A stretch of 64,000 bases of DNA from Chloroflexota bacterium (GTDB lineage Bacteria > Chloroflexota > Dehalococcoidia > UBA6926), in NCBI GenBank assembly GCA_026713485.1, contig JAPOOK010000051.1:914-64913 (forward strand). Reading direction: 5' to 3'. Below the pieces are notes generated by a model that was not told where the DNA came from, ran no database searches, and saw only the letters and a program-made list of their open reading frames with translations. A program made the position numbers and the translations under genes. Every line of letters begins with the position of its first letter. The stretch's first letter is position 1. Positions 8,601 to 63,857 of this stretch are shown in pieces.

Positions 8601-9827
8601 ATGGGCGAGTTCAATAGCGGCGATACTGCCTGGATGTTGATGTCGACAGCACTTGTGCTGTTCATGACACCGGGCCTTGCTTTCTTCTATGGCGGACTGG
8701 TGCGTGGACGAAACGTCATCAGCACGATTTCACTCAGCTTCGTGTCGATGGCCGTGGCCAGCCTTGTCTGGGTGCTCTGGGGATACAGCCTGGCATTCGG
8801 CGACGGCGGAGACCTTAACGCATTTGTAGGCGATCTTTCCTACATAGGCCTCTCCGGCATCGGCATCAACGATGGAGGGAACATTCCTGATCTCCTCTTC
8901 GTTGCATTCCAGATGATGTTCGCCATCATCACACCCGCCCTGATAACGGGCGCAATCGTGGAGAGGTTCAAGTTCACCACGTACATCGTCTTCCTTGTCC
9001 TGTGGCTGACCCTCGTCTACGCCCCCATTTGTCACTGGGTCTGGGCCGAGGGCGGCTGGCTCTTTGAAATGGGTGCGCTTGATTTCGCGGGCGGCACAGT
9101 CGTCCACATCAACGCGGGCGTCGCGGCGCTCATCGCCGCTGTCCTAGTGGGACGCAGGCGCAGGCCGGCACTTGAGCCGCACAACGTCCCGTACGTCGTT
9201 CTAGGCGCGGGCATCCTCTGGTTCGGGTGGTTCGGCTTCAACGCCGGTTCCGGCCTGGCGGCCAACGGGCAGGATGCAAACGCTCTGCTCGTCACCAATA
9301 CGGCTGCGGCTGCAGCAGCGCTGACGTGGGGAATCCTTTCATACATCCAGACTGGTCGAATTAGCACTGTCGGCATTGCCACCGGCGCAGTGGCCGGCCT
9401 CGTGGCCATCACACCGGCTGCGGGATTCGTCAATGTCATGGGCGCTCTTGTGCTCGGAATAGGCGCAGGAATCATCCCGTACTTCTTCGTGCTCTATAGG
9501 CCGCGAATGGGTTTCGACGATGCGCTTGACGTCTTCGGCGTGCACGGCGTCGCAGGAATCTGGGGCGCGCTTGGTACCGGAGTCTTCGCCATTGAGGCTA
9601 TTGGCGGCACGGCGGGACTGCTTGAAGGCAACCCGGAGCAGATGGGAGTGCAGGTGGTCGGTGTTGTCGCAACCCTCGCCTACTCCGGCGTCGCCACATT
9701 CGTCATCCTCAAGGTGCTGGACTTGATCCCCGGCCTTGGACTGAGGGAACCGGAGCCTGCCGAAGATGAGGGTCTTGACTTGGCTGCGCACGGTGAGCGC
9801 GCGTATGTCGCGGACGGCGCAGACTAG
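8601..9827 (+). CDS. amt: Ammonium transporter (Amt/AmtB family)
   Basis: DTAWMLMSTALVLFMTPGLAFFYGG...GAIVERF...HGVAGIWGALGTGVF Amt signature. ATG 8601 is preceded by AGGAGG. Confidence 0.85.
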   Translation: MGEFNSGDTAWMLMSTALVLFMTPGLAFFYGGLVRGRNVISTISLSFVSMAVASLVWVLWGYSLAFGDGGDLNAFVGDLSYIGLSGIGINDGGNIPDLLFVAFQMMFAIITPALITGAIVERFKFTTYIVFLVLWLTLVYAPICHWVWAEGGWLFEMGALDFAGGTVVHINAGVAALIAAVLVGRRRRPALEPHNVPYVVLGAGILWFGWFGFNAGSGLAANGQDANALLVTNTAAAAAALTWGILSYIQTGRISTVGIATGAVAGLVAITPAAGFVNVMGALVLGIGAGIIPYFFVLYRPRMGFDDALDVFGVHGVAGIWGALGTGVFAIEAIGGTAGLLEGNPEQMGVQVVGVVATLAYSGVATFVILKVLDLIPGLGLREPEPAEDEGLDLAAHGERAYVADGAD

Positions 9828-23059: not shown

Positions 23060-24430
23060 CTACGGTATCGACGGATCGTAATCCATCCCGATGTGGCCCT
23101 TCTTGTCGAACTCCGCGTACTCCTCGTCTGAATAGCCCAACACCGACTTATAGATATATTCGTTGTCCTCGCCCAGACGTGGCGAGTGGCGACGGGGCCC
23201 AACCCCGGGATTGTTCATCGACTTGAACGGCGTCATTAGCGCCTTATGCGTCCCCGCCTCCGGGTGTGTCACCCGCGTGAAGAATCCACGATGCTCCAGA
23301 TGCCGGTCCTCGGTCGCGTCGCGTTCATTAATCACAGCGCCGGACGGTACCCCCACCAACTGAAGCTGTTCCATGATCCATGAGGCGTGCTTTTCTGCCG
23401 TCCACGCGCTGATGATGACGTCCAACTCCGCCCTGTTCTCAAACCGTGATTCGTTGTCCTTGAAGCGCGGATCATTCACAAGCTCCGGATGACGCATCCT
23501 CTCGCACAGCGCCTGCCACTGCTCCTCATTCCGGCACGCGATCGTCACCCACTGGTCTTCGCCCTGCGTTCGATACACGTTGTGCGGCGCCAGATAGAAA
23601 TGGTTGTTGCCCATCTGCGTCCACACGCGCCCGTTCATGCTGTAGTCCATCACGAAATCGCCAAGCAACGGCACAAAATTCTCCGCCGTCGGCGCTTCGA
23701 TAAGCAGCCCCTTGCCGGTGCGCTTGAGGTATCGCTTGCCCATCAGGAACGCAAGTGTCGCGCCGATGCCGCTCGCCGCGTCCGACGGCACGCCCGCCGG
23801 CGCATACTCCGGTGACAGGTCGGGATACGTCCGAATCAGCGGATGCCCTGAGATGGCCTCCATGTGATTGCCCCAGGAACGATAGCTCTTGTACGGCCCG
23901 TCCAGCCCGAACGCCGGCATCCGAATCATGATCAGCTTCGGGTTGATCTCAGAGAGCCGTTCCCATGTGATGCCCTGACGTTCCATGCTTTGCGGCAGAT
24001 TGTTCTCAACCAGCGCGTCTGAAACGGCAACGAGTCGCTCCAGTGCCTCCTGACCCTCTTCTGTCCGCAGATTCACGGTCATCGACAACTTGTTGCGGCC
24101 ATGCGCATTGAAAACGGCGCTGCGATTCCACGGGCGTTCCCCCGGCTCACTGTCCGGCATCCCCATGCCCATATTCGTCTGAGCCTGCACCGTCGCAAGC
24201 GCGGGGCGCGCCAGCATTCCCCGCGTCGTGGACGCAAAATGCGTCGTCGACTCCACCCGTATAATCTCCGCGCCCCAGTCCGCCAACTGCATCGTCCCGT
24301 ACGGACCGGCAAACACGACCGTGAAGTCGATAATGCGCATTCCGGCCAGCGGCAGGTCAGGATCGGGCTTCGTAGGGTTGCCCGGGTTCGGCGCCCCGAG
24401 ACTATTCACACTTGAGTTATCCGCTGTCAT
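23060..24430 (-). CDS. Family III CoA-transferase (CaiB/BaiF), B-type subunit, copy 1
   Basis: MRIIDFTVVFAGPYGTMQLADWGAEIIRVE N-terminal CoA-transferase III signature and conserved Asp region (IEAPTAENF). Confidence 0.8.
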   Translation of the reverse strand: MTADNSSVNSLGAPNPGNPTKPDPDLPLAGMRIIDFTVVFAGPYGTMQLADWGAEIIRVESTTHFASTTRGMLARPALATVQAQTNMGMGMPDSEPGERPWNRSAVFNAHGRNKLSMTVNLRTEEGQEALERLVAVSDALVENNLPQSMERQGITWERLSEINPKLIMIRMPAFGLDGPYKSYRSWGNHMEAISGHPLIRTYPDLSPEYAPAGVPSDAASGIGATLAFLMGKRYLKRTGKGLLIEAPTAENFVPLLGDFVMDYSMNGRVWTQMGNNHFYLAPHNVYRTQGEDQWVTIACRNEEQWQALCERMRHPELVNDPRFKDNESRFENRAELDVIISAWTAEKHASWIMEQLQLVGVPSGAVINERDATEDRHLEHRGFFTRVTHPEAGTHKALMTPFKSMNNPGVGPRRHSPRLGEDNEYIYKSVLGYSDEEYAEFDKKGHIGMDYDPSIP

Positions 24431-24447
24431 GGCTGTCTGCTCCGTTC

Positions 24448-25680
24448 CTAAACAACCCCATCCGCTCTCAGGCCGGCGATATCCTCGGCGCTCAGCCCAA
24501 GTTCCGTCAGAACCTCGCCCGTGTGCTCGCCCAGCAGTGGCGCCCGCCGCCTCTTCGGCATTTCCGCGCCCTCGCGGTGCAGCTTGTGGTGATATCCCGG
24601 GTACTTGATCGGCCCTGTTGTCGGGTGGTCGATCTCCTGGAAATAGTTGCGCGCCATGAACTGCGGATTGTTAATGAGATCTTCGATCGTGTTAAGGGGC
24701 CCGCCCAATACGGCAAACTCCTCGCACGCCGCCCGCACCTCTTCTTTGGAGCGCTCCAGCGTCCACGGCACGATGTACGCCAGAAACTCGTCGATGCGAT
24801 CCGGCTCCGCCCGGCCCTCCGCCGTCCCCCACTCCGGCGTCTCCAGCAACTCTTCCATACCGATCATCCGGATGATGTTGGGGATAAACCGAGGCCCGCC
24901 GGTCATAAGGAAATAGCCGTCGGAGCACGGATGCACGCCGCCGCCCACCGCCACCGCGCGCCCCGGTCGGGTCCCAAGATGCCCCGTGTATTGATAGCCC
25001 ATCAGGCGACCAAGCCGCATATCGATGGAGTGCATGGCCGTCTCAAAGACGCTAACGTCCATGTAATCGCCGTCTGCGTCACGGAACTCCACCTGGAACA
25101 GTCCCAACGCGGAGGCCAGCGCCGCTGCATACCCCGCGTGGTAGCTGACCATCCGGCCCGCCGTCTTCAGCGGTTCGTTATCAGCGTCGCCGGAACTGAT
25201 CATGCTCCCGCCCATCGCGTACAGGTTTAGCTCGATGCCGATGTAGTCCCGGTACGGCCCGTCCTGCCCATAGTTTGAGACGGACGTCATCACCAGCTTG
25301 GGGTTGATCTTCTTCAGGTCCTCATACCCCAGCCCAAGCGCCTCCATCGTCCCGGGGGAAAAACTCTCCACCACAATCTGCGCGCCCTTAACAAGCTCCT
25401 TCACGATCTCACGGCCCCGCTCCGACTTGAGATCGAGCGTGACGGACCGCTTGTTGGTGTTCAGGAACATGAACAGGCCGCTGCGCTCAAGCCCAGGCAC
25501 GTCCTTATAGAACGGAGGCATGGATCGCGTGGGATCGCCTGTCTCAGGCCTCTCGATCTTGATGACATCCCCGCCGTAGTCGCCAAGGATACGGGTACCG
25601 AAAGGGCCGGCCGTCATATGCGTCAGATCGATAATGCGCACATCATCCAGCGGCATGATTGGCGTCCCGGGTGTCGTCAT
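24448..25680 (-). CDS. Family III CoA-transferase (CaiB/BaiF), A-type subunit, copy 1
   Basis: VRIIDLTHMTAGPFGTRILGDYGGDVIKIE. ~57% identical to 27047..28336. Confidence 0.8.
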   Translation of the reverse strand: MTTPGTPIMPLDDVRIIDLTHMTAGPFGTRILGDYGGDVIKIERPETGDPTRSMPPFYKDVPGLERSGLFMFLNTNKRSVTLDLKSERGREIVKELVKGAQIVVESFSPGTMEALGLGYEDLKKINPKLVMTSVSNYGQDGPYRDYIGIELNLYAMGGSMISSGDADNEPLKTAGRMVSYHAGYAAALASALGLFQVEFRDADGDYMDVSVFETAMHSIDMRLGRLMGYQYTGHLGTRPGRAVAVGGGVHPCSDGYFLMTGGPRFIPNIIRMIGMEELLETPEWGTAEGRAEPDRIDEFLAYIVPWTLERSKEEVRAACEEFAVLGGPLNTIEDLINNPQFMARNYFQEIDHPTTGPIKYPGYHHKLHREGAEMPKRRRAPLLGEHTGEVLTELGLSAEDIAGLRADGVV

Positions 25681-25724
25681 CCTCTTCTCCCCGTTCCCTC
25701 TAGATAACGCCTCAGTCCCTTCGC

Positions 25725-27044
25725 CTAATCGGCAGGGTCGAGGTCGTAATCCATGCCGATATGACCGGCTGCTTCGTACTCGGCGTAGTCCTTATCGGAA
25801 AAGCCCAGCAACTCCTTGTACACATACTCGTTGTCCTCGCCGAGGCGCGGCGGTCCCCACCGATGCCGACGCGGCGTATTCTTCGCCTTCCAGAGCGTGC
25901 TCGTGTACAGGTGCGTTCCGACCTCCGGGGCCGTCAACTCCTCCCAGAAACCGATTTCCTTCATATGTGGGTCTGCGTAGGCGTCCGACTCGGCCATCAC
26001 CGTGCCTGCTGCGATGCCGTTCGCCTGCAGCACGTTCATCGCCTCGATGGCGTCCTGTGTTACCGTCCAGGTCAACAGCTCGACATCCAGCTCGTCGTGA
26101 TGTTCCTGCCTCCCAGCGAGCGTCGCAAAGCGGCTGTCCGCCGCCAGGTCGGGCCGCTGCATGACAGTCCCGGCCACCGCCCGCCACGCCTCATCCGACT
26201 GCACACTGATGGCGATCCATCGATCATCCCCCACGCACGGGTACACGCCCTGCGGCGCATAGATCGGGTCTCGATTCCCCTGGTGCTCGGTTCGCAGACC
26301 GTTCATGGAGTAGTCCATGAACTGATCTCCCAGGTACGTCATGAAATTCTCGGCAGTTGAAAGCTCGATGAACAGCCCCTCGCCGGTCTTATCCCGGTGG
26401 CGGAGCCCCGCCGAAAACGCCAACGCCCCCGCCGCTCCGCCCGCCGCGTCCGCCGTCAACGTGTTCCCCGTCAGGCTCGGGTCCTCGCCCCGGTACCCCA
26501 TGAACGAGTAGTGGCCGACGACCGCCGCCATGTGGCTGCCGAACGTTCGGTAGTTCTTGTACGGGCCGTCGATGCCGAAAGCCGGCTGGCGGATCATGAT
26601 GGCGCGTGGATTCACCTTGTGAACACGCTCCCACGTGACGTTCACGCGCTCCATGCTGATGGGCACGTTGTTTTCCATGATCCCGTCGGATATCTGCAGC
26701 AGCCGATCAAATACCTCTTGCCCCTCAGGACGTCGCAGATCGACGGTCATGCTCCGCTTGTTGCGAGCGTGCGCGTTGAATGAGGCCCATCGATTCCACG
26801 GCCTCTCACCGGGCTCATGATCCGGGAACTGCGCCGATCCGCCTCCCAAACTCGGCATACCTCTATCGGGCCGCGGCATCATGCCCCGCGTCGTAGGCGG
26901 GAAGTGCTTGATCGATTCAATGCGAATGATCTCCGCGCCCCAATCCGCCAGCATCTGCGTGCCATAAGGCCCCGCCCAAACGACCGTGATATCGAGAATC
27001 CGCACACCCTCAAGGGGCAGCCGACGTGATCCGGTGCTGACCAT
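25725..27044 (-). CDS. Family III CoA-transferase, B-type subunit, copy 2
   Basis: VRILDITVVWAGPYGTQMLADWGAEIIRIE. Paralog of 23060..24430. Confidence 0.8.
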   Translation of the reverse strand: MVSTGSRRLPLEGVRILDITVVWAGPYGTQMLADWGAEIIRIESIKHFPPTTRGMMPRPDRGMPSLGGGSAQFPDHEPGERPWNRWASFNAHARNKRSMTVDLRRPEGQEVFDRLLQISDGIMENNVPISMERVNVTWERVHKVNPRAIMIRQPAFGIDGPYKNYRTFGSHMAAVVGHYSFMGYRGEDPSLTGNTLTADAAGGAAGALAFSAGLRHRDKTGEGLFIELSTAENFMTYLGDQFMDYSMNGLRTEHQGNRDPIYAPQGVYPCVGDDRWIAISVQSDEAWRAVAGTVMQRPDLAADSRFATLAGRQEHHDELDVELLTWTVTQDAIEAMNVLQANGIAAGTVMAESDAYADPHMKEIGFWEELTAPEVGTHLYTSTLWKAKNTPRRHRWGPPRLGEDNEYVYKELLGFSDKDYAEYEAAGHIGMDYDLDPAD

Positions 27045-27046
27045 TC

Positions 27047-28336
27047 CTACACCACCCCTTCCGACCGAAGACCGGCAATCTCCGCCTCGTCGCGTCCCAA
27101 CACATCGCGCAGAATCTCATCTGTATGCTCTCCCAGCAGAGGAGCGCGTTTACGGGCGGGCAGCCCGCTGCCGTCCACAAAATGCAGCTTCACGTGATAG
27201 CCGGGGTAGGCGATAGGCCCGGTTGTCGGATGATCGATCTCCTGGAAGAACTGCGTATGCTGCAGTTGCTCATCGTTGTGCAGGTCTTCGAACGAGTTGA
27301 TCGGCCCGCCCAGCACGCCAAACTCTTGGCACTCCGCGCGGATCTCCTTCTTGGTGCGCTCCAGCATCCACGGCACAATCACAGCCAACGACTCATCGAG
27401 CCGCTCCGGCGCCGATCGCGCCATCGGCGTCGACCACTCTGGCGTCTGTAGCAGGTCGCCCATGCCCACCATCTGCATGAAGCGCGGGAACATCGCCGGC
27501 CCCGCCGTCGTCATGAAATAACCGTCCTGGCAGATCCACGTCCCGGAACCGATAGCCCCTGCCGGCCACGGTCGTGTTGAATTGCCCCCGCCGTACTGGT
27601 ACCCCATCAGGTAGCTCTGGCGACGGTCGATGGCGCCCATCCACACCGGGAGCGCTCCCACGTCCAGGTGATCGCCTTCGCCGCTTGCCTCGACGCTCAG
27701 CAAGTGGATGGACGTGGCTGCCGCCGCAACCGCCCCCACCTGGTACGCCGCCACGCGGCCCCCGAAGTTCAGCGGTTCCCGCTCCGGGTGGCCGGTATTG
27801 ATCATCGCCCCGCCCATCGCGTAGGAGGTTATTTCCGTCGCCTCCCAGTCGCGATACGGCCCCGTCTGGCCGTAGTTGCTGATGGACGTCATGATCAGGC
27901 GCGGGTTCACAGCGCGCAGCGTCTCGTAGTCCAGCCCCAACGACGGCATCACGCGCGGCCGAAAACTCTCAACCAGCACGTCCGCGTCTTTCACCAGGTC
28001 GAGAACGATCTGCCGCCCGCGCTCCGACTTGAGGTCCAACGTCATGGAGCGCTTGCCAAGATTGGTGTACATAAACAATCCGCTGCGCTCAAGGCCCGGC
28101 TGATCCTCGTAGAACGGCGGAATATCCCGCCCCGGATCGCCCACACCGGGCCGCTCGATCTTGATCACGTCAGCGCCCCAATCCGCGAGACGACGCGTCC
28201 CAAACGGCCCCGCAACGTGCCACGTCAGGTCAATGACCCGAAGGCCGCTAAATGGCAAGACCGCTGCGTCCTGCCGCTCCCCTTGTTGTTGGCTTGCCAT
28301 AGACATGCCACCCATCCTCCCCAATGGATGCCGCAT
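27047..28336 (-). CDS. Family III CoA-transferase, A-type subunit, copy 2
   Basis: LRVIDLTWHVAGPFGTRRLADWGADVIKIE. Its stop overlaps the start of the downstream B-type gene (ATGA). Confidence 0.8.
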   Translation of the reverse strand: MRHPLGRMGGMSMASQQQGERQDAAVLPFSGLRVIDLTWHVAGPFGTRRLADWGADVIKIERPGVGDPGRDIPPFYEDQPGLERSGLFMYTNLGKRSMTLDLKSERGRQIVLDLVKDADVLVESFRPRVMPSLGLDYETLRAVNPRLIMTSISNYGQTGPYRDWEATEITSYAMGGAMINTGHPEREPLNFGGRVAAYQVGAVAAAATSIHLLSVEASGEGDHLDVGALPVWMGAIDRRQSYLMGYQYGGGNSTRPWPAGAIGSGTWICQDGYFMTTAGPAMFPRFMQMVGMGDLLQTPEWSTPMARSAPERLDESLAVIVPWMLERTKKEIRAECQEFGVLGGPINSFEDLHNDEQLQHTQFFQEIDHPTTGPIAYPGYHVKLHFVDGSGLPARKRAPLLGEHTDEILRDVLGRDEAEIAGLRSEGVV

Positions 28337-42574: not shown

Positions 42575-43194
42575 TAGCTTGCCTCCACGCCCTCACTGAG
42601 GGCGCTTATCCCCTCGCGGTCCCCCTGCAGCAGCTTCTCCGCGTACTTGGCAAAGATATCCGTTTCTAGATTCACCGGCATCCCCACGTACGCCTCGCCA
42701 AGATCAGTATTCTCATACGTGTGCCGCACCAGCGACACACTGAACGATTCGTCGTCCAGCCCCATGACCGTCAGGCTGATGCCATTCACCGTGATGAATG
42801 CCTTTTCGACGAGATACTTCATTACCTCCGGCGGCGCAGTGATCCGTACAAGCCGCGCGTCTCCCTCAGGGGTGATCTCCGCCACCGTGCCCGTGCCGTC
42901 TACGTGCCCCTGCACCAGGTGACCGCCAAGACGACTGTTGAACGTGACGGCCCGTTCCAGGTTGATTGGGCTACCGGGCTTGAGCACGTTCATCGCCGTC
43001 CGCCTCAGCGTCTCCGGCATGACGTCAAAACTCACCCGGCTGTCCGTCATATCCGTCACCGTCAGGCACGCGCCATTGACGGACAAGCTGTCACCGATGC
43101 GCGTTTCGCCCAGCGTCACGTCGGCCTCGACTATCAGGCCGCCCTCGCCAACGGCGACAATCCGCCCCACCTCTTCAACGATCCCCGTAAACAT
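42574..43194 (-). CDS. ribE: Riboflavin synthase
   Basis: MFTGIVEE...SLSVNGACLTV with an internal duplicated half. Stop overlaps the ribBA ATG (TAATG). Confidence 0.85.
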   Translation of the reverse strand: MFTGIVEEVGRIVAVGEGGLIVEADVTLGETRIGDSLSVNGACLTVTDMTDSRVSFDVMPETLRRTAMNVLKPGSPINLERAVTFNSRLGGHLVQGHVDGTGTVAEITPEGDARLVRITAPPEVMKYLVEKAFITVNGISLTVMGLDDESFSVSLVRHTYENTDLGEAYVGMPVNLETDIFAKYAEKLLQGDREGISALSEGVEAS

Positions 43195-43216
43195 CTTCGT
43201 CCTGACGCCTACCCGG

Positions 43217-43240
43217 CCTTGGTCATTCCCGCGAAAGCGA
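43217..43240 (+). repeat. Type-C repeat module (GTCATTCCCGCGAAAGCGAGGAAC) in the ribE-ribD intergenic gap
   Basis: Matches copies at 39933, 56986 and 63868. Confidence 0.5.
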
Positions 43241-43291
43241 GGAACCACCGTTTATCCCTTCTTGATGCCCCTGATTATACGCCCGAGCTGC

Positions 43292-44410
43292 TTAGTCCGC
43301 GCCGCCTTGCCAATACCGCAGGATGCCGCGCACAACGATATCCTCTCCCACGAGGTCAACATCCATCCTCACGAATCGATGCGCATCCTTCACATACTCC
43401 ACGCCATCGCCGCCTACGGGCCCCGGCGCTTCACCTCCGCCGATGATCACCGGAGCGACGGAAATCTCCGCCTGATCAACGAGTCCGTCGTCAAAGAACG
43501 CGCCAAGCAGCTGCTCCCCGGCCTCTGTCATCACCTGCACCGCTCCGAGATGCCCAAGGTGTTGCAACAGTGCCGTCAGATCCACGCGCCCGCCTTCGGA
43601 TGGGAAAGCCGCCGCTGTCACGCTGTCACCCAGGTCTTGGAACGGCGCGCACACCGCCGCCGATGCCGTCGCCACCAATGTCTTGCCCGGCTCGCTGAAC
43701 AACCGGGCCGAGGGCGGCGTCCGCCCGTTGCTGTCCGCGATAACGCGCATTGGTTGGCGGGACAGCGCATTGCCCTCGCCGTCTCGCGCCGTCAGTTGTG
43801 GGTCATCGGAAATCACCGTCCCTGCCGCCGTGATGATCGCGTCAACGTGCGAACGAAGCTCGTGGACACGGCCCCGCGCCGCCTCTCCCGTGATCCATCG
43901 CGAATCCCCCGTACGACTCGCTATCTTGCCGTCGAGGCTCATCGCGTACTTCGCGATGACCAGCGGCATCCCTGTCTCCTCGCGCTTGAAATACCCCTGG
44001 AAGTGCAGCGTTGCTTCCTCAGCGCAATCACCGACGCTTGTCGAAACGCCGTGCTCCTCCAATAGACGCCGTCCGGAGCCGTTAACCGGCGGATGCGGGT
44101 CCAACACCGCGATCTCCACCGACGTAACCCCTGCGGCAATCATCGCCTCCGCGCATGGCGGCGTACGACCGTGGTGCGAACACGGCTCCAGCGTCGTGTA
44201 CATAGTCGCGCCACGCGCCTTTTCACCTGCCTGTTCCAGCGCGACGATTTCGGCGTGCGGGCCGCCGGGCGGCTGCGTGAAGCCCTCTCCGACGATCTCC
44301 CCCTCGCGCACGATAACCGCGCCAACTGCAGGATTGGGACTTGAGAATCCGAGCGCCTGACGTCCCAATTCCAGGGCGCGGGCCATGGGCGTGGTGGCCC
44401 CGTGCGTCAC
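43292..44410 (-). CDS. ribD: Bifunctional riboflavin-biosynthesis deaminase/reductase
   Basis: CMP/dCMP deaminase zinc motifs HAE...[11 protein letters not shown] plus a C-terminal reductase domain. GTG start overlaps the dcd stop (GTGA). Confidence 0.9.
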
Positions 44411-44979
44411 TGTCGGGCCTGGAAATCGCGGAACGCGCGGCTCGGCGTCGGCTCAGACTGCCCCTGGTACTTGCTGCCGAGCCGCTCGGAGCCGTAAGGC
44501 CGCTGCGCCGGCCCGGACAGCCGTGTAAAGGAGATCTGGCCGATGGGCATTCCGCTGTAAAGAGTAATAGGCAGATTGTTCACGTTGCTCAGTTCAAGGG
44601 TCAGACGTCCGCGCCAGCCGGGATCCACGTACCCCGCCGTCGAGTGGATCAGCAGCCCGATGCGCCCAAGGGAACTCTTGCCCTCTAGCCGCGCCACCAG
44701 GTCGTCCGGCAGGCCGATGTCCTCAATCGTGCTGCCCAGCACAAACTCGCCGGGGTGCAGGATGAACGGCGCGTCGTCGCGTATTTCCACCATCTCCGTC
44801 AGATCGCTCACATCCTGCCGGATATCGATATATGGCCGGCGGGAGTTCCGGAAAACGAGAACCTTGTCGCTCAAATGCACGTCGACACTTGCCGGCTGCA
44901 CGTCCCCCAGATCCAGCGGGTCGATGATTATGCGGCCGTTCTCAATTTCAGCGTGGATTTCGCCGTCGTTAAGGACCAT
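44407..44979 (-). CDS. dcd: dCTP deaminase
   Basis: PASVDVHL and [10 protein letters not shown] motifs. Start MVLNDGEI (ATG 44979) with GGGGGAGGGG RBS. Confidence 0.85.
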
Positions 44980-49141: not shown

Positions 49142-50710
49142 CTAGCCTCGTCCGCGTTCACCACCGGAGCCGTGCTCACCGCCGGACTCACTGCCGGAGC
49201 CATGCTCACCACCACCTTCACTGCCGCTGCCGTGCTCGCCGCCGGACTCACCGCCGCCGACTTCGGCATGGGCGACCCATCCGGTGAACGGCGCCTGCGT
49301 GGAGGGCATGTTGACTCTGGCCACCCAGCCCGGACCCAGGTTGACGGGATTCGTCGGCCCGAGCTCGGTTCCGTTCGACAGGTGCACCTCGATCCTGACT
49401 CGATTCAAGATGCTCCTCGTCGTATTCTCCACGGTGCCCTTGAACGAATTACTGGAAGCGTCATAGCCCAGGATCAGCCGCGCGCCACTGCGGATCTCGT
49501 CGAAGGTCTGGTCAGGCGCCAGCTGATTGGCCCCGCTGCCCTCTTCGCTGCCGGACTCTCCACTACGTTCACTGCCGGACTCGGCGCCGCTGCCTTCAGC
49601 ACTGTTGCTTCCGGAGCCTTCGCTGCCGCCTTCACCACCGGGCCCGTGGCCCTCGCCACCGGAACCCTCGCCGCCACCGCCTTCGCCTGAGCCTTCGCCG
49701 CCGCCACTTCCCTCAGTGCTCTGTCCCGGCATGTGAGGCACAGGTCCGGTGCCGCCGCAGTCGAACACTTCCAGGTGCACGACGTACCCGTCAAAGGAAA
49801 CTCCTGCGAGGCTCGGCTCGCTGGCCAGCGGCACGCTCGTCGCGGCCGATTGTCCGGGACTCAGGTGTCCCAGTACATCGGGGCCAAGCTCGCCAACAGT
49901 CGTCGTGCCCGACTTCAGGTGCGGTTCGGCCTGCACGTAGCAGAGCACCTGCGGGAGCGTGTTTGTGACCAGTGACTGGACCGATTGAGTTGCCGGATCG
50001 AACCGCGCAACGACGTCCAGTCCGCCAAGGTTGCCCGCCCAGGTATCACTGAGTGGAATGATGGGGCTGGACATCTCGGCTTCACCGGCCTCAGCACCCA
50101 TGCCGCCGCTCTCAGTGCCCTCGGGCCCCTCATTACCGCCCTCGCTGCCGCTGCCCTCGCCGCCGGACTCGCCACCGCCTTCACCGCTGCCAACTTCGGC
50201 ATGAGGTGTCCATCCGGTGAACGGTTCCACGGTTGAGGGCAGGTTGACCGGCAACACCTGACCCGGTGCCAGGTCGACAGGCGTCGTCGGCCCGAGCTCT
50301 GTGCCGTTGTCGAGGTGCACTTCGATCCTGACCCGCGTCAGGGTGTTATTGGTTGTGTTCTCCACCGTGCCTGTGAAGGCATTGCTCCCGGCGTCGTAGT
50401 TCAGGATCAAGCGCGCGCCGCTGCGAACCGTGTCGAAGGTCTCGTCAGGCGCCAACTGGTTTGCGCCGCTGCCCTCTTCACTGCCGGACTCGGAGCCTTC
50501 ACCGCCGGATTCTCCACCGGATTCACCGCCGGAGCTGTGCTCGCCGCCGCTCTCTCCGCCGGAACTCTCCTGGCTCGTGCCCTCGCTCCCGGACTCCGGA
50601 CCTTCGCTGGATTCGTTGTTGCTTGTGCAGCCGCTGAGGATCACCACCAGGAATAGCGCCCCCACCGCAACTACCAGGAACATACTTCTCATCAGCTTCT
50701 TGATAATCAT
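49142..50710 (-). CDS. Lipoprotein with an internally duplicated ~100-aa domain, Gly/Glu/Ser-rich acidic linkers and a His-containing (GGEHGSGSE)n tail
   Basis: LSGC lipobox. Two domain copies GANQLAPD(E/Q)TFD..RSGARLIL.YDA..N.F.GTVENTT...L.RVRIEVHL.NGTELGPT.PV.L.PG are >75% identical at protein and DNA level. Confidence 0.5.
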   Translation of the reverse strand: MIIKKLMRSMFLVVAVGALFLVVILSGCTSNNESSEGPESGSEGTSQESSGGESGGEHSSGGESGGESGGEGSESGSEEGSGANQLAPDETFDTVRSGARLILNYDAGSNAFTGTVENTTNNTLTRVRIEVHLDNGTELGPTTPVDLAPGQVLPVNLPSTVEPFTGWTPHAEVGSGEGGGESGGEGSGSEGGNEGPEGTESGGMGAEAGEAEMSSPIIPLSDTWAGNLGGLDVVARFDPATQSVQSLVTNTLPQVLCYVQAEPHLKSGTTTVGELGPDVLGHLSPGQSAATSVPLASEPSLAGVSFDGYVVHLEVFDCGGTGPVPHMPGQSTEGSGGGEGSGEGGGGEGSGGEGHGPGGEGGSEGSGSNSAEGSGAESGSERSGESGSEEGSGANQLAPDQTFDEIRSGARLILGYDASSNSFKGTVENTTRSILNRVRIEVHLSNGTELGPTNPVNLGPGWVARVNMPSTQAPFTGWVAHAEVGGGESGGEHGSGSEGGGEHGSGSESGGEHGSGGERGRG

Positions 50711-58214: not shown

Positions 58215-58916
58215 TCAATGGGTGGGAACCGAGAGGTGATTAAGCGTTCGCCGCCCCACCTCCACCCCCAGTACCACGTCCAACATCTCCAGAATCGCCT
58301 GTGTTGGCACGCGATCTCCGATGTTTATACCGACGTACCCCCACACCACACCGCCGTCCGGTCGGATGACAAACGTCGCGGGCGCGGCCACACCGTCCCC
58401 CAGCAGATTGAACACCCCGTAGCTCTTCGACACGTCCTCGCTCGTGTCCGCCAGGATCGGGAACTCCGCCCCCGCCATCACCTCCATCCGCTCGGCATCG
58501 ACCAACAAGTCCGTGCTGATCGCCGCGAGGCCGACGTTCCGGTTCTCAAACTCGTCGTAGAAACTCTGCAACTCGACCAGTTGCTGCTGGCAGATGCCTC
58601 AACCGTAGCTGCGATAGAAGACCACCACGAGCGCATCGCGCCCCGCCAACAGATCATCCAACGAGTGCCTCTCGCCAGTGCCCGTAGACAGTGAGAAATC
58701 CGGCGCTTGTGGCGCTTCGGGCTCCGGAGTCTCTGTTGGAACCGCGGTGGGCGAAGGCAAAGGCGTGTCCGTCGGGGACGGCGTTACGGTTGGAGAGGGC
58801 GCGAGAGTTGGAGCGGGTGTTGGAGATTCCTCCGAGCAACCCGCGAGCACGACGCTCAGCGCCAGCATGGCCACCACCAACAACAATTGGAAGGGCACGA
58901 AACGACGGGTAATCAC
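58215..58916 (-). CDS. Lipoprotein Prx-like/AhpC-TSA-family redoxin interrupted by an in-frame TGA (58599..58601) at the first Cys of the CxxC motif; selenoprotein candidate (UGIC) or pseudogene
   Basis: ORFs 58599..58916 and 58215..58571 are in the same frame. The joined product reads ...LVVVFYRSYG-[TGA]-GICQQQLVEL..., matching the family motif FRGxW-CPxC-RRHL. N-terminus has an LAGC lipobox and a TP-rich linker. Confidence 0.45.
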
Positions 58917-59132: not shown

Positions 59133-59915
59133 ATGGACTTTACGCGAACTCTAAACCCACTCCTTGTTTTCCTGGTTGCCGCGCTAACTGCGCTTGCGCT
59201 CGCCTGCGGCACGGCGGCAGAGCCGACGGCAACAGCCACGCCCGTTCCTCCCGCGCCAACGGCCACCCCAACACCCACACCAGAGCCAACAGCGACCCCT
59301 GAGTCAATGTCCGACTCCATGCCCACTCTAGGAGCAAATTCTACGTGGCAGGACGTGGTTGGTGCTCTCTTTACCGACGAAGAATCCGCCTGCGTGCGTG
59401 ACACCGTAGGAGAAGAGACATATACCGCCATGCTGAATCAGCCATTCATGGATCAATCCCTGGAAAGCAATGCAAACGCAGTGGCTCACTGCCTTTCACA
59501 GGAATCTCAGGTGGATCTGTACTTGGCGGCCATGTCCGGCGCAGCCGGTGGCGGCATCAGCACTGAGAGTCTGGCGTGTCTGAAGGCAGGCCTAATCGAC
59601 ACCGGTGAGGACTTCTTCGCAGATGAGATCCAACCGGCGGTCGCGGTGGTCTTTCTGAACTGCCTGTCCGAGGATGAATTGGCCGCGCTGGCGGCCTCGT
59701 CTGCGTTGGAACCGGCCGGGGAGACATCCGAAACGACTCCGCTGGAGTTGCTGCGCGCCCAGGCCGGACTTGATCCGAACGTCCAGGCCCTGTTTGATTG
59801 CCTTGATCAGAACGCCACCCAACGTGAGTTGGAGGCGTACTTCAATGAGAACTCCCAGACACTCCCCTCAGCGGCAATGGAGTGCTTCGTGCTGCACCCG
59901 TTAGCGGGTGGATAG
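59133..59915 (+). CDS. Secreted lipoprotein with Thr/Pro-rich linker and Cys-repeat domain (paralog of 4926..5714)
   Basis: LALAC lipobox, ATATPVPPAPTATPTPTPEPTATP linker, five xxC(L/V)xx repeats. Confidence 0.5.
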   Translation: MDFTRTLNPLLVFLVAALTALALACGTAAEPTATATPVPPAPTATPTPTPEPTATPESMSDSMPTLGANSTWQDVVGALFTDEESACVRDTVGEETYTAMLNQPFMDQSLESNANAVAHCLSQESQVDLYLAAMSGAAGGGISTESLACLKAGLIDTGEDFFADEIQPAVAVVFLNCLSEDELAALAASSALEPAGETSETTPLELLRAQAGLDPNVQALFDCLDQNATQRELEAYFNENSQTLPSAAMECFVLHPLAGG

Positions 59916-61445: not shown

Positions 61446-63857
61446 CTACCTGAGCACGCCACTCTCAGTCCCCTTTGATATTTCCTCGTCGGACAAGCCG
61501 AGCACGCTCCTGAACACATACTCATTATCCTCACCGATCCATGGCGCACGGTTCGCCGCAGTTGCCCTGGATAGGGAAGGAACGGCCGGCAGTCCGTGAT
61601 GGGAGAGCGTCCCCCACGTCGTGTGCGTCGACCGCACGATGTGTCCGCGCTCTCTCAGATGCGGATCGTTGTACAGGTCCTCGCTGTTCATCGCCACGCC
61701 GGCCGGCACCCCGACCTTCTGCAACATGTGAAGAACCTGGTGCGACGTGAACGCCTTGGCCCACTCGCTTATCTCATGGTCGATTTCGTCGCGATTCGCC
61801 CGTCGTCCCTCCCTGTCCGCAAAACGTGGGTCGTCCGCCCAGTGTGGCGCGCCCATCGCCGTCGACAGCGCCCGCCATTGCTCGTCCGTCTCGCACGCGA
61901 TGACGATCCACGTATCCGGGTACAGGCACGCGTACGCCCCGTAGGGCGCGTAATGGGCCGCCAACGGCTCGTCATAGCCCACGCTGCCCCAGATGTTCCC
62001 GTTGATCGTGTAGTCCAGGATGGCCGGGCCCATCATCGATCCCTGCCCGTCCACCTGCGCAATCTCAATGAATTGCCCGCGACCCGTCACGTCGCGGAAC
62101 TCAAGCGCCGCCGCCGTCGAAAGCGCAACGAACGCCGCTCCCACATAGTCCGGTATGACACCCTTCGCGTGGTTCTGCATCGGCGAGTCCGGGTGCCCCC
62201 ACAACAGCGACAGCCCCGTCACCGCCTGCAGGTTGTTGCCATACGTTACCCAGTTGTTCAGCGGCCCGTCTGATCCCATACCCGGCATCCCGATCTGGAT
62301 GATGCCCGGGTTGATCTTCGTCAGATCGTCGTAGCCCAGCCCAAGCCGCTTCATCACCGTCGCGCTGAAGTTGTCAACGACCACATCGCTGTCTTTAGCG
62401 AGCCGACGGAACAGCTCCTTGCCCTCATCCGAGCGGAGATCGACTGTGCAGCTCAGCTTGTTGCGGTTCATGTCAGGGAACAGCGGGCGCGTCGGCTCGC
62501 GATTCGCCTCAAGGCTTGCAGACTCCACCTTGATGACCTCCGCGCCATAGAACCCCAGGAACATGGTCCCGATGGGCCCGGCAAACGCCCGCGTGATGTC
62601 CGCTACGCGGATGCCGTCCAACAGCGCCGCATCTGGCGCCTTCCCATTCGTCGGTGCAGGGTACGTCTCGCGTCGCGGGGAAACCGTCTCGATCTCTGCC
62701 AACACCTCATCCCGATGCTGATCCAGCAGCGGGGCAGGGCGAGTCTGGTTCCACGGCGTCGCCGACATGATGAACGGCTGACCCGGCGTCTCATACTCGC
62801 CAACGACAGGATGCGTCACCTTCTGGAACCACCCGCGCTGCCTCATATGGTCATCCGTCACGAAATCCTCGAACGTATTGACCGGGCAGCACGCGAGGCC
62901 GCGCTTCTGCGCCTCCTCCACGAACTCATCGCGGTCGAACTGTTCCACGAACGACTGAATCAGTATCTGTGCGAGGTCCTCGTTGTCCGTCCGGTACTGC
63001 GATGAATCCCAGTCATCGTCGGACAGCACCGCGTCCTCCATCCACTGCCGGGACAGGACGCGCCAATGGCCGGTCATAAAGATCGCAATCTGGACGTACT
63101 TGTCATCCTTTGTTCGATAGATATTGGCGGGACCGCCGCGGGGGCCCTGCCGCGTCACGATCTCGCTCCGCTGGCTGTACCGTGCAATCGTGCCGACCGT
63201 CGCGAACGTCAGCGCCTCCTGCAGCGAAAGGTCGATGCGCTGCCCGCGCCCCGTCGCCCGCCGGTGCCGAACGGCATTGATCGCCAGGTACGCTCCGTGG
63301 ACGGCCGCGAGCTGCGACCCAATCTGGCACGGCAGAACGACGGGTGAGCGCTCATCATCGCCCTGGCTCATCATCACGCCGGACATGGCGGAGATGATCG
63401 CCTCATTGGCCGCAAAGTGGCTGAACGGCCCCGTCTGCCCGAATGGCGTCAGCGAGACCGTCACAAGACCCGGATTCAAAGCCTCCAGCCGTGCATCATC
63501 AATCCCCAACGCCGCCAGCTGGCCGGGCGTCGTGCACTCCACAAAGACATCCGCGCGCTCGATGAGCTTCTCAAGCGTCTCCCGCCCGCCGGAGTCATCA
63601 ATATCCAGCACGATACTGCGACGATTCAGATTGGCGTTCAGGAACTTGATCCCGCGCTCCGGGTCTGCGATGTCCCCCGCGAAGGGCCCATGCATCCGGT
63701 TTGGATCGCCCCCCGGCGGCTCCACCTTGATGACGTCCGCGCCGAGCCCCGCGAGATACCCCGCGCAATACGCCGCCGGAATCTCCCCAATCTCTACAAC
63801 CCGCAGATGCCCCAGCGCCGAATCCGTTTCCCCGTTAGTCATAGCCATTCTCCCCAC
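61446..63857 (-). CDS. Fused two-domain family III CoA-transferase (A-type domain followed by B-type domain, 803 aa)
   Basis: Two complete CaiB/BaiF domains: LRVVEIGEIPAAYCAGYLAGLGADVIKVE... and IRVADITRAFAGPIGTMFLGFYGAEVIKVE.... The domains match the A and B subunit types of the 23060..28336 array respectively. Confidence 0.8.
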   Translation of the reverse strand: MGRMAMTNGETDSALGHLRVVEIGEIPAAYCAGYLAGLGADVIKVEPPGGDPNRMHGPFAGDIADPERGIKFLNANLNRRSIVLDIDDSGGRETLEKLIERADVFVECTTPGQLAALGIDDARLEALNPGLVTVSLTPFGQTGPFSHFAANEAIISAMSGVMMSQGDDERSPVVLPCQIGSQLAAVHGAYLAINAVRHRRATGRGQRIDLSLQEALTFATVGTIARYSQRSEIVTRQGPRGGPANIYRTKDDKYVQIAIFMTGHWRVLSRQWMEDAVLSDDDWDSSQYRTDNEDLAQILIQSFVEQFDRDEFVEEAQKRGLACCPVNTFEDFVTDDHMRQRGWFQKVTHPVVGEYETPGQPFIMSATPWNQTRPAPLLDQHRDEVLAEIETVSPRRETYPAPTNGKAPDAALLDGIRVADITRAFAGPIGTMFLGFYGAEVIKVESASLEANREPTRPLFPDMNRNKLSCTVDLRSDEGKELFRRLAKDSDVVVDNFSATVMKRLGLGYDDLTKINPGIIQIGMPGMGSDGPLNNWVTYGNNLQAVTGLSLLWGHPDSPMQNHAKGVIPDYVGAAFVALSTAAALEFRDVTGRGQFIEIAQVDGQGSMMGPAILDYTINGNIWGSVGYDEPLAAHYAPYGAYACLYPDTWIVIACETDEQWRALSTAMGAPHWADDPRFADREGRRANRDEIDHEISEWAKAFTSHQVLHMLQKVGVPAGVAMNSEDLYNDPHLRERGHIVRSTHTTWGTLSHHGLPAVPSLSRATAANRAPWIGEDNEYVFRSVLGLSDEEISKGTESGVLR

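Follow-up and report, generated by a model that had tools for sequence, protein, structure and literature searches.

A putatively lipid-anchored, peroxiredoxin-fold protein of a marine Dehalococcoidia bacterium very probably carries selenocysteine at an in-frame TGA

We analyzed a 64,000-nucleotide stretch of DNA from a Chloroflexota bacterium (GenBank assembly GCA_026713485.1, contig JAPOOK010000051.1, positions 914 to 64,913; hereafter "the window" means this whole stretch), in which a minus-strand gene at 58215..58916 is interrupted by one in-frame TGA at 58599..58601. Very probably, this locus is a single gene for a selenocysteine (Sec)-containing, lipid-anchored thiol/selenol oxidoreductase with a peroxiredoxin (Prx) fold, and the in-frame TGA is almost certainly a genuine Sec codon of a marine Dehalococcoidia (SAR202-type) bacterium. 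A selenoprotein had already been proposed here from the letters of the window (the original prediction), and that proposal is now supported by the presence of the same TGA across species, by Cys at this position in homologues with an FYRGxWCPxC motif, and by a conserved hairpin with the features of a bacterial selenocysteine insertion sequence (bSECIS).

When 58916..58215 (minus strand) was read as 234 codons, the only internal stop was the TGA at 58601..58599, so that the gene comprises 233 sense codons including one Sec-UGA, followed by a terminal TGA stop. A mechanical list of open reading frames (ORFs) contains the two halves in the same frame, at 58599..58916 (105 aa) and 58215..58571 (118 aa), and both this list and our translation confirmed the pair parted by a single TGA as originally described. 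The GTG at 58916 is the first in-frame start codon, the true start being uncertain. The three parts foreseen for the joined product are all present. Its N-terminus, VITRRFVPFQLLLVVAMLALSVVLAGC, ends in an LAGC lipobox; by inspection against the pattern [LVI][ASTVI][GAS]C, and with the start codon uncertain as said, it has a charged n-region and a hydrophobic h-region followed by L-A-G-C. This putative signal peptide (58836..58916) is followed by a Thr/Pro-rich linker of ~40 residues (residues 28-69, 58710..58835) and by an AhpC/TSA domain of the peroxiredoxin fold (residues 70-191, 58344..58709); the mature protein is predicted to begin with a lipidated Cys27 (58836..58838). The domain matched Pfam PF00578 with an E-value of 3.2e-25 (88.9 bits against a cut-off of 26; Redoxin was matched as well), and the match passes uninterrupted across the TGA at residue 106. 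The sequence around this codon is VVVFYRSYG-TGA-GICQQQLVEL, in which Sec would be the first residue of a UxxC motif and Cys109 (58590..58592) the second redox residue, as judged from the alignment with Mycobacterium tuberculosis AhpE and from the invariance of its column in family alignments. Lipobox-type N-termini were also found in relatives (IIAGC and VTGC in the proteins P0003 and P0004, SAC in the locus L003, and GC, AC or SC in forms with Cys at the TGA position), as were low-complexity linkers resembling that of the window protein.

Every public assembly examined splits this gene at the TGA into two hypothetical ORFs. Taken literally, this annotation means that a 105-residue lipoprotein fragment ends at the TGA and that a 118-residue protein is made separately from the internal TTG at 58571. 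Apart from the gene callers' consistent choice, the observations speak against two products: the Pfam match and the Prx fold both extend across the TGA, and therefore neither half would be a complete fold; the split parts the CxxC-equivalent motif from the strands that position it; and the internal start varies between relatives, in which called C-terminal fragments begin at different residues. We regard this possibility as exceedingly doubtful.

The TGA itself is real and conserved. The whole gene, TGA included, was found with 702/702 identity in ENA ERZ27241797 and JGI 3300027386, two independent assemblies whose matching contigs, short (1.3-4.4 kb) and from independent projects, were retrieved by an exact-sequence look-up of the neighbouring 260-aa protein. 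This identity therefore excludes an assembly error. Beyond the general possibility of such errors in metagenome assemblies, nothing suggests that the true codon is TGC; with the two projects in full agreement and the orthologues all agreeing on TGA, we consider the probability of a misread codon vanishingly small. A scan with one genome per species gave 306 relatives, and codons were counted in the best 80 of these 306. TGA stood at the homologous codon in 78 of the 80 and TGC or TGT in none, the remaining two being 5'-truncated fragments; whether orthologues carry Cys or TGA here, a question raised together with the original prediction, is thus answered for TGA. The hosts of these 80 relatives are nearly all Dehalococcoidia, SAR202 and other Chloroflexota metagenome-assembled genomes (MAGs), with a few Anaerolineae and one Latescibacterota. 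Their protein identity to the window extends from 97% down to ~44%, with coding conservation on both flanks of the TGA, and therefore the TGA is not one shared recent mutation.

These counts also bear on the pseudogene alternative, in which a nonsense change from TGC to TGA would have disabled a Prx-like lipoprotein gene of the Cys type. A lone in-frame stop at a Cys position is what such a mutation would leave, and frameshifts in two relatives (see below) indicate that decay occurs in the family or in its assemblies. This alternative, considered from the beginning, is refuted by TGA in 78 of the 80 species, with no TGC or TGT, together with the 702/702 identity; in addition, both flanks are conserved as protein (45-97% identity), tandem domains each retain their own TGA, and the codon is followed by a structured element specific to the TGA forms. 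We therefore consider a pseudogene extremely improbable.

In a protein search, the called products of database relatives ended exactly at the TGA codon (…VFYRSYG, …VFFRAWW, …VFYRAFW), while some called relatives started in the C-terminal half of one domain and ended at the TGA of a second domain; the DNA of these database relatives had TGA each time. Several relatives have two Prx-like domains in tandem, each with its own TGA, and such proteins are predicted to contain two Sec residues. In these two-domain lipoproteins, one of which lies at L003:9512-11056 (+), each domain has an in-frame TGA and a downstream hairpin of its own; further examples have TGAs starting at 9362 and 9953 in L004, 1784 and 2309 in L008, 2998 and 3523 in L071, and 2369 and 2998 in L090. 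Gene callers split these two-domain relatives into three pieces.

A HMMER search with the part of the protein after the TGA returned mainly C-terminal fragments of ~100 residues, i.e. more split genes, together with more distant, full-length homologues in which Cys stands at the TGA position. The closest of these homologues, P0016 (FYRGFFCGICRGQLVEL), has Cys opposite the TGA and shares 50% identity with the window protein in a gapless alignment of 147 residues. P0034, P0030 and P0028 likewise have Cys at this site, as does a large FYRGxWCPxCxxQLxEL group, many members of which have lipoboxes. The Sec/Cys pair used as a criterion for bacterial selenoproteins is thus found with P0016 and with the FYRGxWCxxC group, and the same homologues bear out the alignment of FYRSYG-TGA-GICQQQL with F-R-G-x-W-C-P-x-C on which the selenoprotein had first been proposed.

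Downstream of the UGA, the mRNA can form the hairpin GCAACU-GGUCG-AGUUGC (58568..58584, minus strand), a candidate bSECIS with a 6-bp stem and a 5-nt apical loop (58574..58578). Counting the U of UGA as 1, the stem consists of G18-C34, C19-G33, A20-U32, A21-U31, C22-G30 and U23-A29 and the loop of G24, G25, U26, C27 and G28; the stem begins 14 nt after the UGA, and 20 nt lie between the UGA and the apical loop. The hairpin is encoded within the codons of Q-Q-L-V-E-L-Q. It had been drawn previously as GCAAC-UGGUCGA-GUUGC, and it is present with one pair more than drawn and proved to be a conserved element in the comparative data described next. Its energy alone is -8.0 kcal/mol, and it is part of the minimum free energy (MFE) structure of the 48 nt from the UGA (UGA..+45; -12.1 kcal/mol). 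The published bSECIS model requires an apical loop of 3-9 nt on an upper stem of 4-16 bp, a G in the first two loop positions, a spacing of 16-37 nt from UGA to loop, and an MFE of -7.5 kcal/mol or lower (PMC13188914, Fig. 2A). With its 5-nt loop and 6-bp stem, G at the loop start, spacing of 20 nt and -8.0 kcal/mol, the window hairpin has all four features. In the 48-nt MFE structure we also observed a mini-hairpin, GGC-AUCU-GCC (58589..58598, minus strand), directly after the UGA; its pairing bases belong to the Gly codon and to UGC-C in the Cys and Gln codons, and it is probably a by-product of this coding sequence.

For the comparative analysis we aligned 86 distinct sequences with TGA (Sec forms) without gaps. 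The structure predicted by RNAalifold from these sequences was the hairpin helix alone. In its seven-pair version 92.5% of the cells were paired, as compared with 12-39% when the 3' partner was slid by 1-3 columns, and the covariation score of the hairpin was above those of all 500 shuffles. The pair of columns 33 and 43, which joins the synonymous third base of Gln to the first base of Leu, was G-C in 53 sequences, A-U in 27, G-U in 5 and mismatched in 1. The pair 34-42 was C-G in 80 and A-U in 6, the peptide changing from QL.EL to QI.DL (the QIVDL variant). The pair 36-40 was C-G in 57, G-C in 7 (QLVQL) and open in 22 including the window, and hence the loop has either 3 nt or 5 nt; a G begins it in 86/86 Sec forms. 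Codon choice in the helix also departed from the background of the same genes: YUG for the second Leu in 85/86 Sec forms (background, 63%), GAG for Glu in 71/71 (76%) and CUC for the first Leu in 51/80 (18.5%). As a control, 77 distinct genes with Cys at the TGA position (Cys forms) were taken from metagenomes and compared in the same register. Sec forms made 5-7 of the 7 pairs, whereas Cys forms made 1-6, most often 4; the mean local hairpin energy was -9.0 kcal/mol for Sec forms and -1.7 kcal/mol for Cys forms; and hairpins of -7.5 kcal/mol or lower were found in 72/86 Sec forms but in 0/77 Cys forms. Codon use is mixed in the ten Cys forms with a QLxEL peptide, with GAA for Glu in 5/10 and six different codons for the first Leu. 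The alignments indicate that the hairpin is under selection at the RNA level, specifically in the Sec forms.

Several observations weigh against the selenoprotein reading, and we list them together here. The hairpin is short (6 bp, -8 kcal/mol) and without a conserved lower stem. When 65 nt of the window sequence were folded, a different, non-conserved structure was preferred, and the stability was not above that of shuffled sequences (z -0.53); this alternative structure uses downstream sequence specific to the window, and we replaced the single-sequence 65-nt folding with the comparative analysis and the 48-nt fold given above. A check with covariance models, suggested along with the original prediction, turned out negative: Rfam gave no match to a SECIS family in the whole window at gathering thresholds or in 58400..58750 at E<=10. 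Q-L-x-E-L is a protein motif that is common to the Cys forms, and its codons are partly self-complementary, so that some of the pairing comes free; the case for the hairpin therefore rests on the synonymous sites and on the Cys-form control. That control was drawn from other taxa with different codon usage, which may explain part of the contrast; because the effect is so large, codon usage is unlikely to be the full explanation. Frameshifts occur around the site in two relatives, a TARA scaffold (L010) and P0002. We observed that both of these, L010:9800-10420 (+) on a scaffold of 333,929 bp and P0002, keep the TGA and the hairpin, with the frameshifts on one or both sides, and they are either decaying copies or the result of assembly indels. 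Finally, no SelA, SelB or SelD (tblastn with the E. coli proteins) and no tRNA-Sec were found within the 64-kb window, an absence that had been pointed out before and that ARAGORN, Rfam and tblastn bear out; the only tRNA in the window is a tRNA-Lys.

On the other side, a trace of the Sec machinery was found next to a family member elsewhere. ARAGORN detected no tRNA-Sec in the window or in 60 loci, and a tblastn search with E. coli SelA, SelB and SelD, covering the window and all 775 kb of retrieved loci, gave one match only, a SelB fragment in the locus L068. This locus belongs to a 2.17-Mb contig of a Dehalococcoidia MAG, and at its edge L068:2-505 (-) encodes the first 168 residues of a GTPase, the start of selB, which lies 2.5 kb upstream of the gene for the family member. 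The encoded fragment has 53% identity to E. coli SelB and scores 199.7 bits on the selB equivalog TIGR00475 (positions 2-164), as against 99 bits for EF-Tu, and its closest database relatives include many Dehalococcoidia and Chloroflexi proteins named selenocysteine-specific elongation factor by NCBI or JGI. The 120 best SelB matches were each 158-294 residues long, even on contigs of 170-510 kb. In the one instance inspected, L176:6001-7862 (+) on a long-read contig of 8x coverage, a frameshift close to a GC-rich run (…CGCGCCGGGC…) divides selB, and this frameshift is probably an assembly indel. In BSepDB, a database limited to genomes with the Sec pathway, two Dehalococcoidia MAGs with 49 and 46 selenoprotein genes are in the bacterial top ten (PMC13326102).

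It might be considered that the UGA is translated but not as Sec, through near-cognate or suppressor read-through, through a variant tRNA that inserts Cys or Trp, or because TGA is a sense codon. Two observations lean that way: the Sec machinery was seen in another family-bearing genome and not in the window, and Trp stands at the site in the database proteins P0023 and P0053. However, among the 64 long ORFs selected from the window, TGA is the ordinary stop in ~25, and therefore the codon is not reassigned genome-wide; the position, loop G and size of the hairpin are those of SelB-binding bSECIS elements; and SelB is encoded in a genome bearing a family member. P0023 and P0053 are full-length database homologues available as protein only (…GHFWGICRAQL…), and the simplest account of their Trp is a TGA that an annotation pipeline translated with a code-4-type table, the alternative being a true TGG. 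A paper on UGA-to-Cys recoding is silent on UGA in Dehalococcoidia. Translation as another amino acid is in our view very unlikely, and we keep to the reading of the UGA as Sec.

The Sec residue does not sit where a peroxiredoxin has its peroxidatic Cys. Among solved structures, the closest in sequence is that of M. tuberculosis AhpE (Rv2238c; E 1e-9), in which FFPLAF-T-GIC corresponds to FYRSYG-U-GIC of the window protein, so that Sec is opposite the active-site Thr and Cys109 opposite the peroxidatic Cys. The Pro and Thr of canonical peroxiredoxins are both absent, the Pro (of FFPLAFTGIC) being replaced by Arg and the Thr by Sec, and the catalytic Arg (R116 of AhpE, in ANRGTF) is replaced by a Pro (AAPATF) that is invariant in the family. 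What is present is the motif of Prx-like UxxC proteins, U-G-I-C, not TxxU. With Sec at the Thr position of peroxiredoxins and the next Cys at the peroxidatic position, the protein is therefore read as a thioredoxin-like UxxC on a Prx scaffold. The TGA had been placed on a catalytic Cys, which holds in so far as the FYRGxWCPxC homologues have Cys there, but the description as peroxidatic does not: the TGA aligns with the Thr of AhpE, and the peroxidatic position belongs to the downstream Cys. An AlphaFold model of P0016 (predicted local distance difference test score, 97.4) has Cys37, the Sec equivalent, directly ahead of helix 38-49, and the PDB structures that it matches best are those of Bcp4 and AhpE (template modelling scores, 0.88-0.89).

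Taken together, we infer that the organism inserts Sec at this codon and exports and lipidates the product. In the proposed mechanism, the UGA at 58599..58601 would be read as Sec during translation, the mRNA hairpin at 58568..58584, with its loop starting with GGU, acting as a bSECIS that recruits SelB-GTP-Sec-tRNA(Sec) to the ribosome. The product would then be exported, lipidated at Cys27 and tethered by the Thr/Pro-rich stretch outside the cytoplasmic membrane, with U106-G-I-C109 at the N-terminal end of the first helix of a thioredoxin-type fold. There, U106 and Cys109, the predicted partner in a selenenylsulfide bond, may cycle between the selenol/thiol and the selenenylsulfide, reducing disulfides, possibly peroxides, on extracytoplasmic substrates. 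With such a presumed chemistry and substrate, the protein would resemble ResA or TlpA in its logic more than a peroxidase.

The gene neighbourhood offers a hint about its role. In the window and in the closest relatives, the selenoprotein gene lies beside infC-rpmI-rplT, which is uninformative on function. Among the more distant loci, eight have a CopC-CopD-cytochrome c fusion gene as its immediate neighbour; by locus annotation, this fusion gene comes directly after it on the plus strand (L028:3251-5686, L068:3251-5659 and six other loci) and overlaps it in L068. The linkage is not seen in the window. At most, it hints at a link of the family to copper-protein handling. A more specific idea, that the Chloroflexota clade reduces cysteine pairs in exported copper- or cytochrome-handling proteins in the manner of TlpA rather than removing peroxide, seems to us rather unlikely at present; if true, this would be the first selenoenzyme tied to extracytoplasmic metalloprotein maturation. 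Recurrent His-rich or membrane proteins without a Pfam match were observed upstream and downstream in the copper-fusion loci. In the window, the gene at 59133..59915 (+), between the selenoprotein gene and rplT, encodes the 260-aa protein mentioned above. It is a predicted lipoprotein (…LALACGT…) without a Pfam match, and its Thr/Pro linker resembles that of the selenoprotein. This gene is found at that place only in this clade (present in L011, L012 and L017, absent from L001 and L002).

Other features were observed elsewhere in the window. At 49142..50710 (-) lies a gene for a predicted lipoprotein of 522 aa (…LSGCTS…) without a Pfam match, which consists of two nearly duplicate halves with long Gly/Ser/Glu-rich runs (GESGGE repeats) between them and on either side. 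The regions 23060..28336 (-) and 61446..63857 (-) contain four consecutive ORFs of ~410-456 aa with similar N-termini and one more ORF, the only one on which Pfam was run, with two CoA-transferase family III domains; such a paralogue array fits a SAR202-type genome. Long ORFs overlap on opposite strands at 42647..44065 (+) and 43292..44593 (-), and both continue across an in-frame TGA, at 42920 on the plus strand and at 44455 on the minus strand. A scan of the window for further genes interrupted by TGA was too noisy at 60% GC to be useful.

Reading the locus as a single selenoprotein gene corrects the annotation in the window and in at least 78 genomes of Dehalococcoidia, SAR202 and other Chloroflexota, and adds to the picture of heavy selenium use in an abundant ocean lineage. 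It also provides a case in which a helix motif that the structure requires, Q-L-x-E-L, carries the SECIS in its own codons, some of the compensatory changes altering amino acids (QIVDL). Known Sec decoding and what is known of Prx-like selenoproteins are left unchanged.

With regard to Sec decoding, a known element for comparison is the SECIS of E. coli fdhF, with G23/U24 in the loop, U17 bulged out and a minimal helix that begins 11 nt after the UGA. An fdhF-type geometry had been claimed for the window hairpin, and this holds in part. Like the fdhF element, the hairpin lies in the coding region just after the UGA and has GGUC in its apical loop. Unlike it, the loop GU is at +25/+26 (not +23/+24), the stem starts 14 nt after the UGA, a bulged U and a long lower helix are missing, and Rfam recognized nothing, so that the hairpin falls outside the fdhF type.

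With regard to protein families, the window protein and four other members were compared with NCBIfam models. The best match was NF040769, SelL-related redox protein (eukaryotic SelL, Prx-like2 type), with which they share a Prx-like scaffold carrying CxxC, UxxC or UxxU; the scores of 52-90 bits are below its cut-off of 120, and therefore the family is not a SelL-related member by NCBI's criterion. The window protein reached 27.9 bits against a cut-off of 270 for PrxU (NF040737, TxxU), and the scores for the WAxxUGC, TUGYCR and Rcas_1661 models, like that for PrxU, were far below those for NF040769. For the lipid anchor, too, NCBIfam offers a precedent, a thioredoxin-like family from a Chloroflexi genome that is named "(seleno)lipoprotein". 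To judge from the window protein and these four members, the family appears to be an uncurated clade captured by no NCBIfam model and not a new kind of selenoprotein. In the literature we found nothing relevant on SAR202 together with a selenoprotein, or on a selenoprotein together with a lipobox.

The closest solved sequences and folds are AhpE (PDB 1xxu/1xvw), a 1-Cys peroxiredoxin, and the archaeal Bcp4 (3hjp), in which the counterpart of Cys109 is at the peroxidatic position. Unlike AhpE, which is cytoplasmic and has no CxxC, the window protein has Arg, Sec and Pro in place of the Pro, Thr and Arg of peroxiredoxins. ResA, TlpA, CcmG and StoA, with weaker but significant sequence matches, resemble it in having a CxxC-type motif on a thioredoxin fold and in the anchoring outside the membrane that is predicted for it, and the adjacency to CopC-CopD-cytochrome c in eight related loci recalls the role of TlpA in copper-protein maturation. 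The window protein differs from these four in having Sec for Cys and a scaffold of the Prx type, not the TlpA type. The nearest counterparts are the Prx-like thiol:disulfide oxidoreductase selenoproteins with UxxC (PF00578), predicted since 2004-2005 (Kryukov & Gladyshev 2004; Zhang et al. 2005, "Prx-like protein", PMC1088965). The Sargasso Sea study described this family as a thioredoxin-like UxxC on a Prx scaffold (PMC1088965), the Global Ocean Sampling selenoproteome listed 225 sequences as "Prx-like 1" (pfam00578, UxxC; PMC2398784), and it is among the commonest marine selenoprotein families (PMC1088965; PMC2398784 Table 2; family table of PMC13188914). That UxxC redoxins are an established class of bacterial selenoproteins, as the original prediction assumed, agrees with these three papers. 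Like these selenoproteins, the window protein has an AhpC/TSA domain with Sec first in UxxC (in contrast to the TxxU of Sec-peroxiredoxins), a bSECIS directly after the UGA, a marine metagenomic origin, and existing Cys homologues. Unlike them, its clade consists of predicted lipobox lipoproteins with a Thr/Pro linker, is almost confined to Chloroflexota (Dehalococcoidia, SAR202, Anaerolineae), and is essentially always in the Sec form among the 80 closest relatives, some members having two Sec domains. The window gene fits the known Prx-like UxxC kind in every tested feature.

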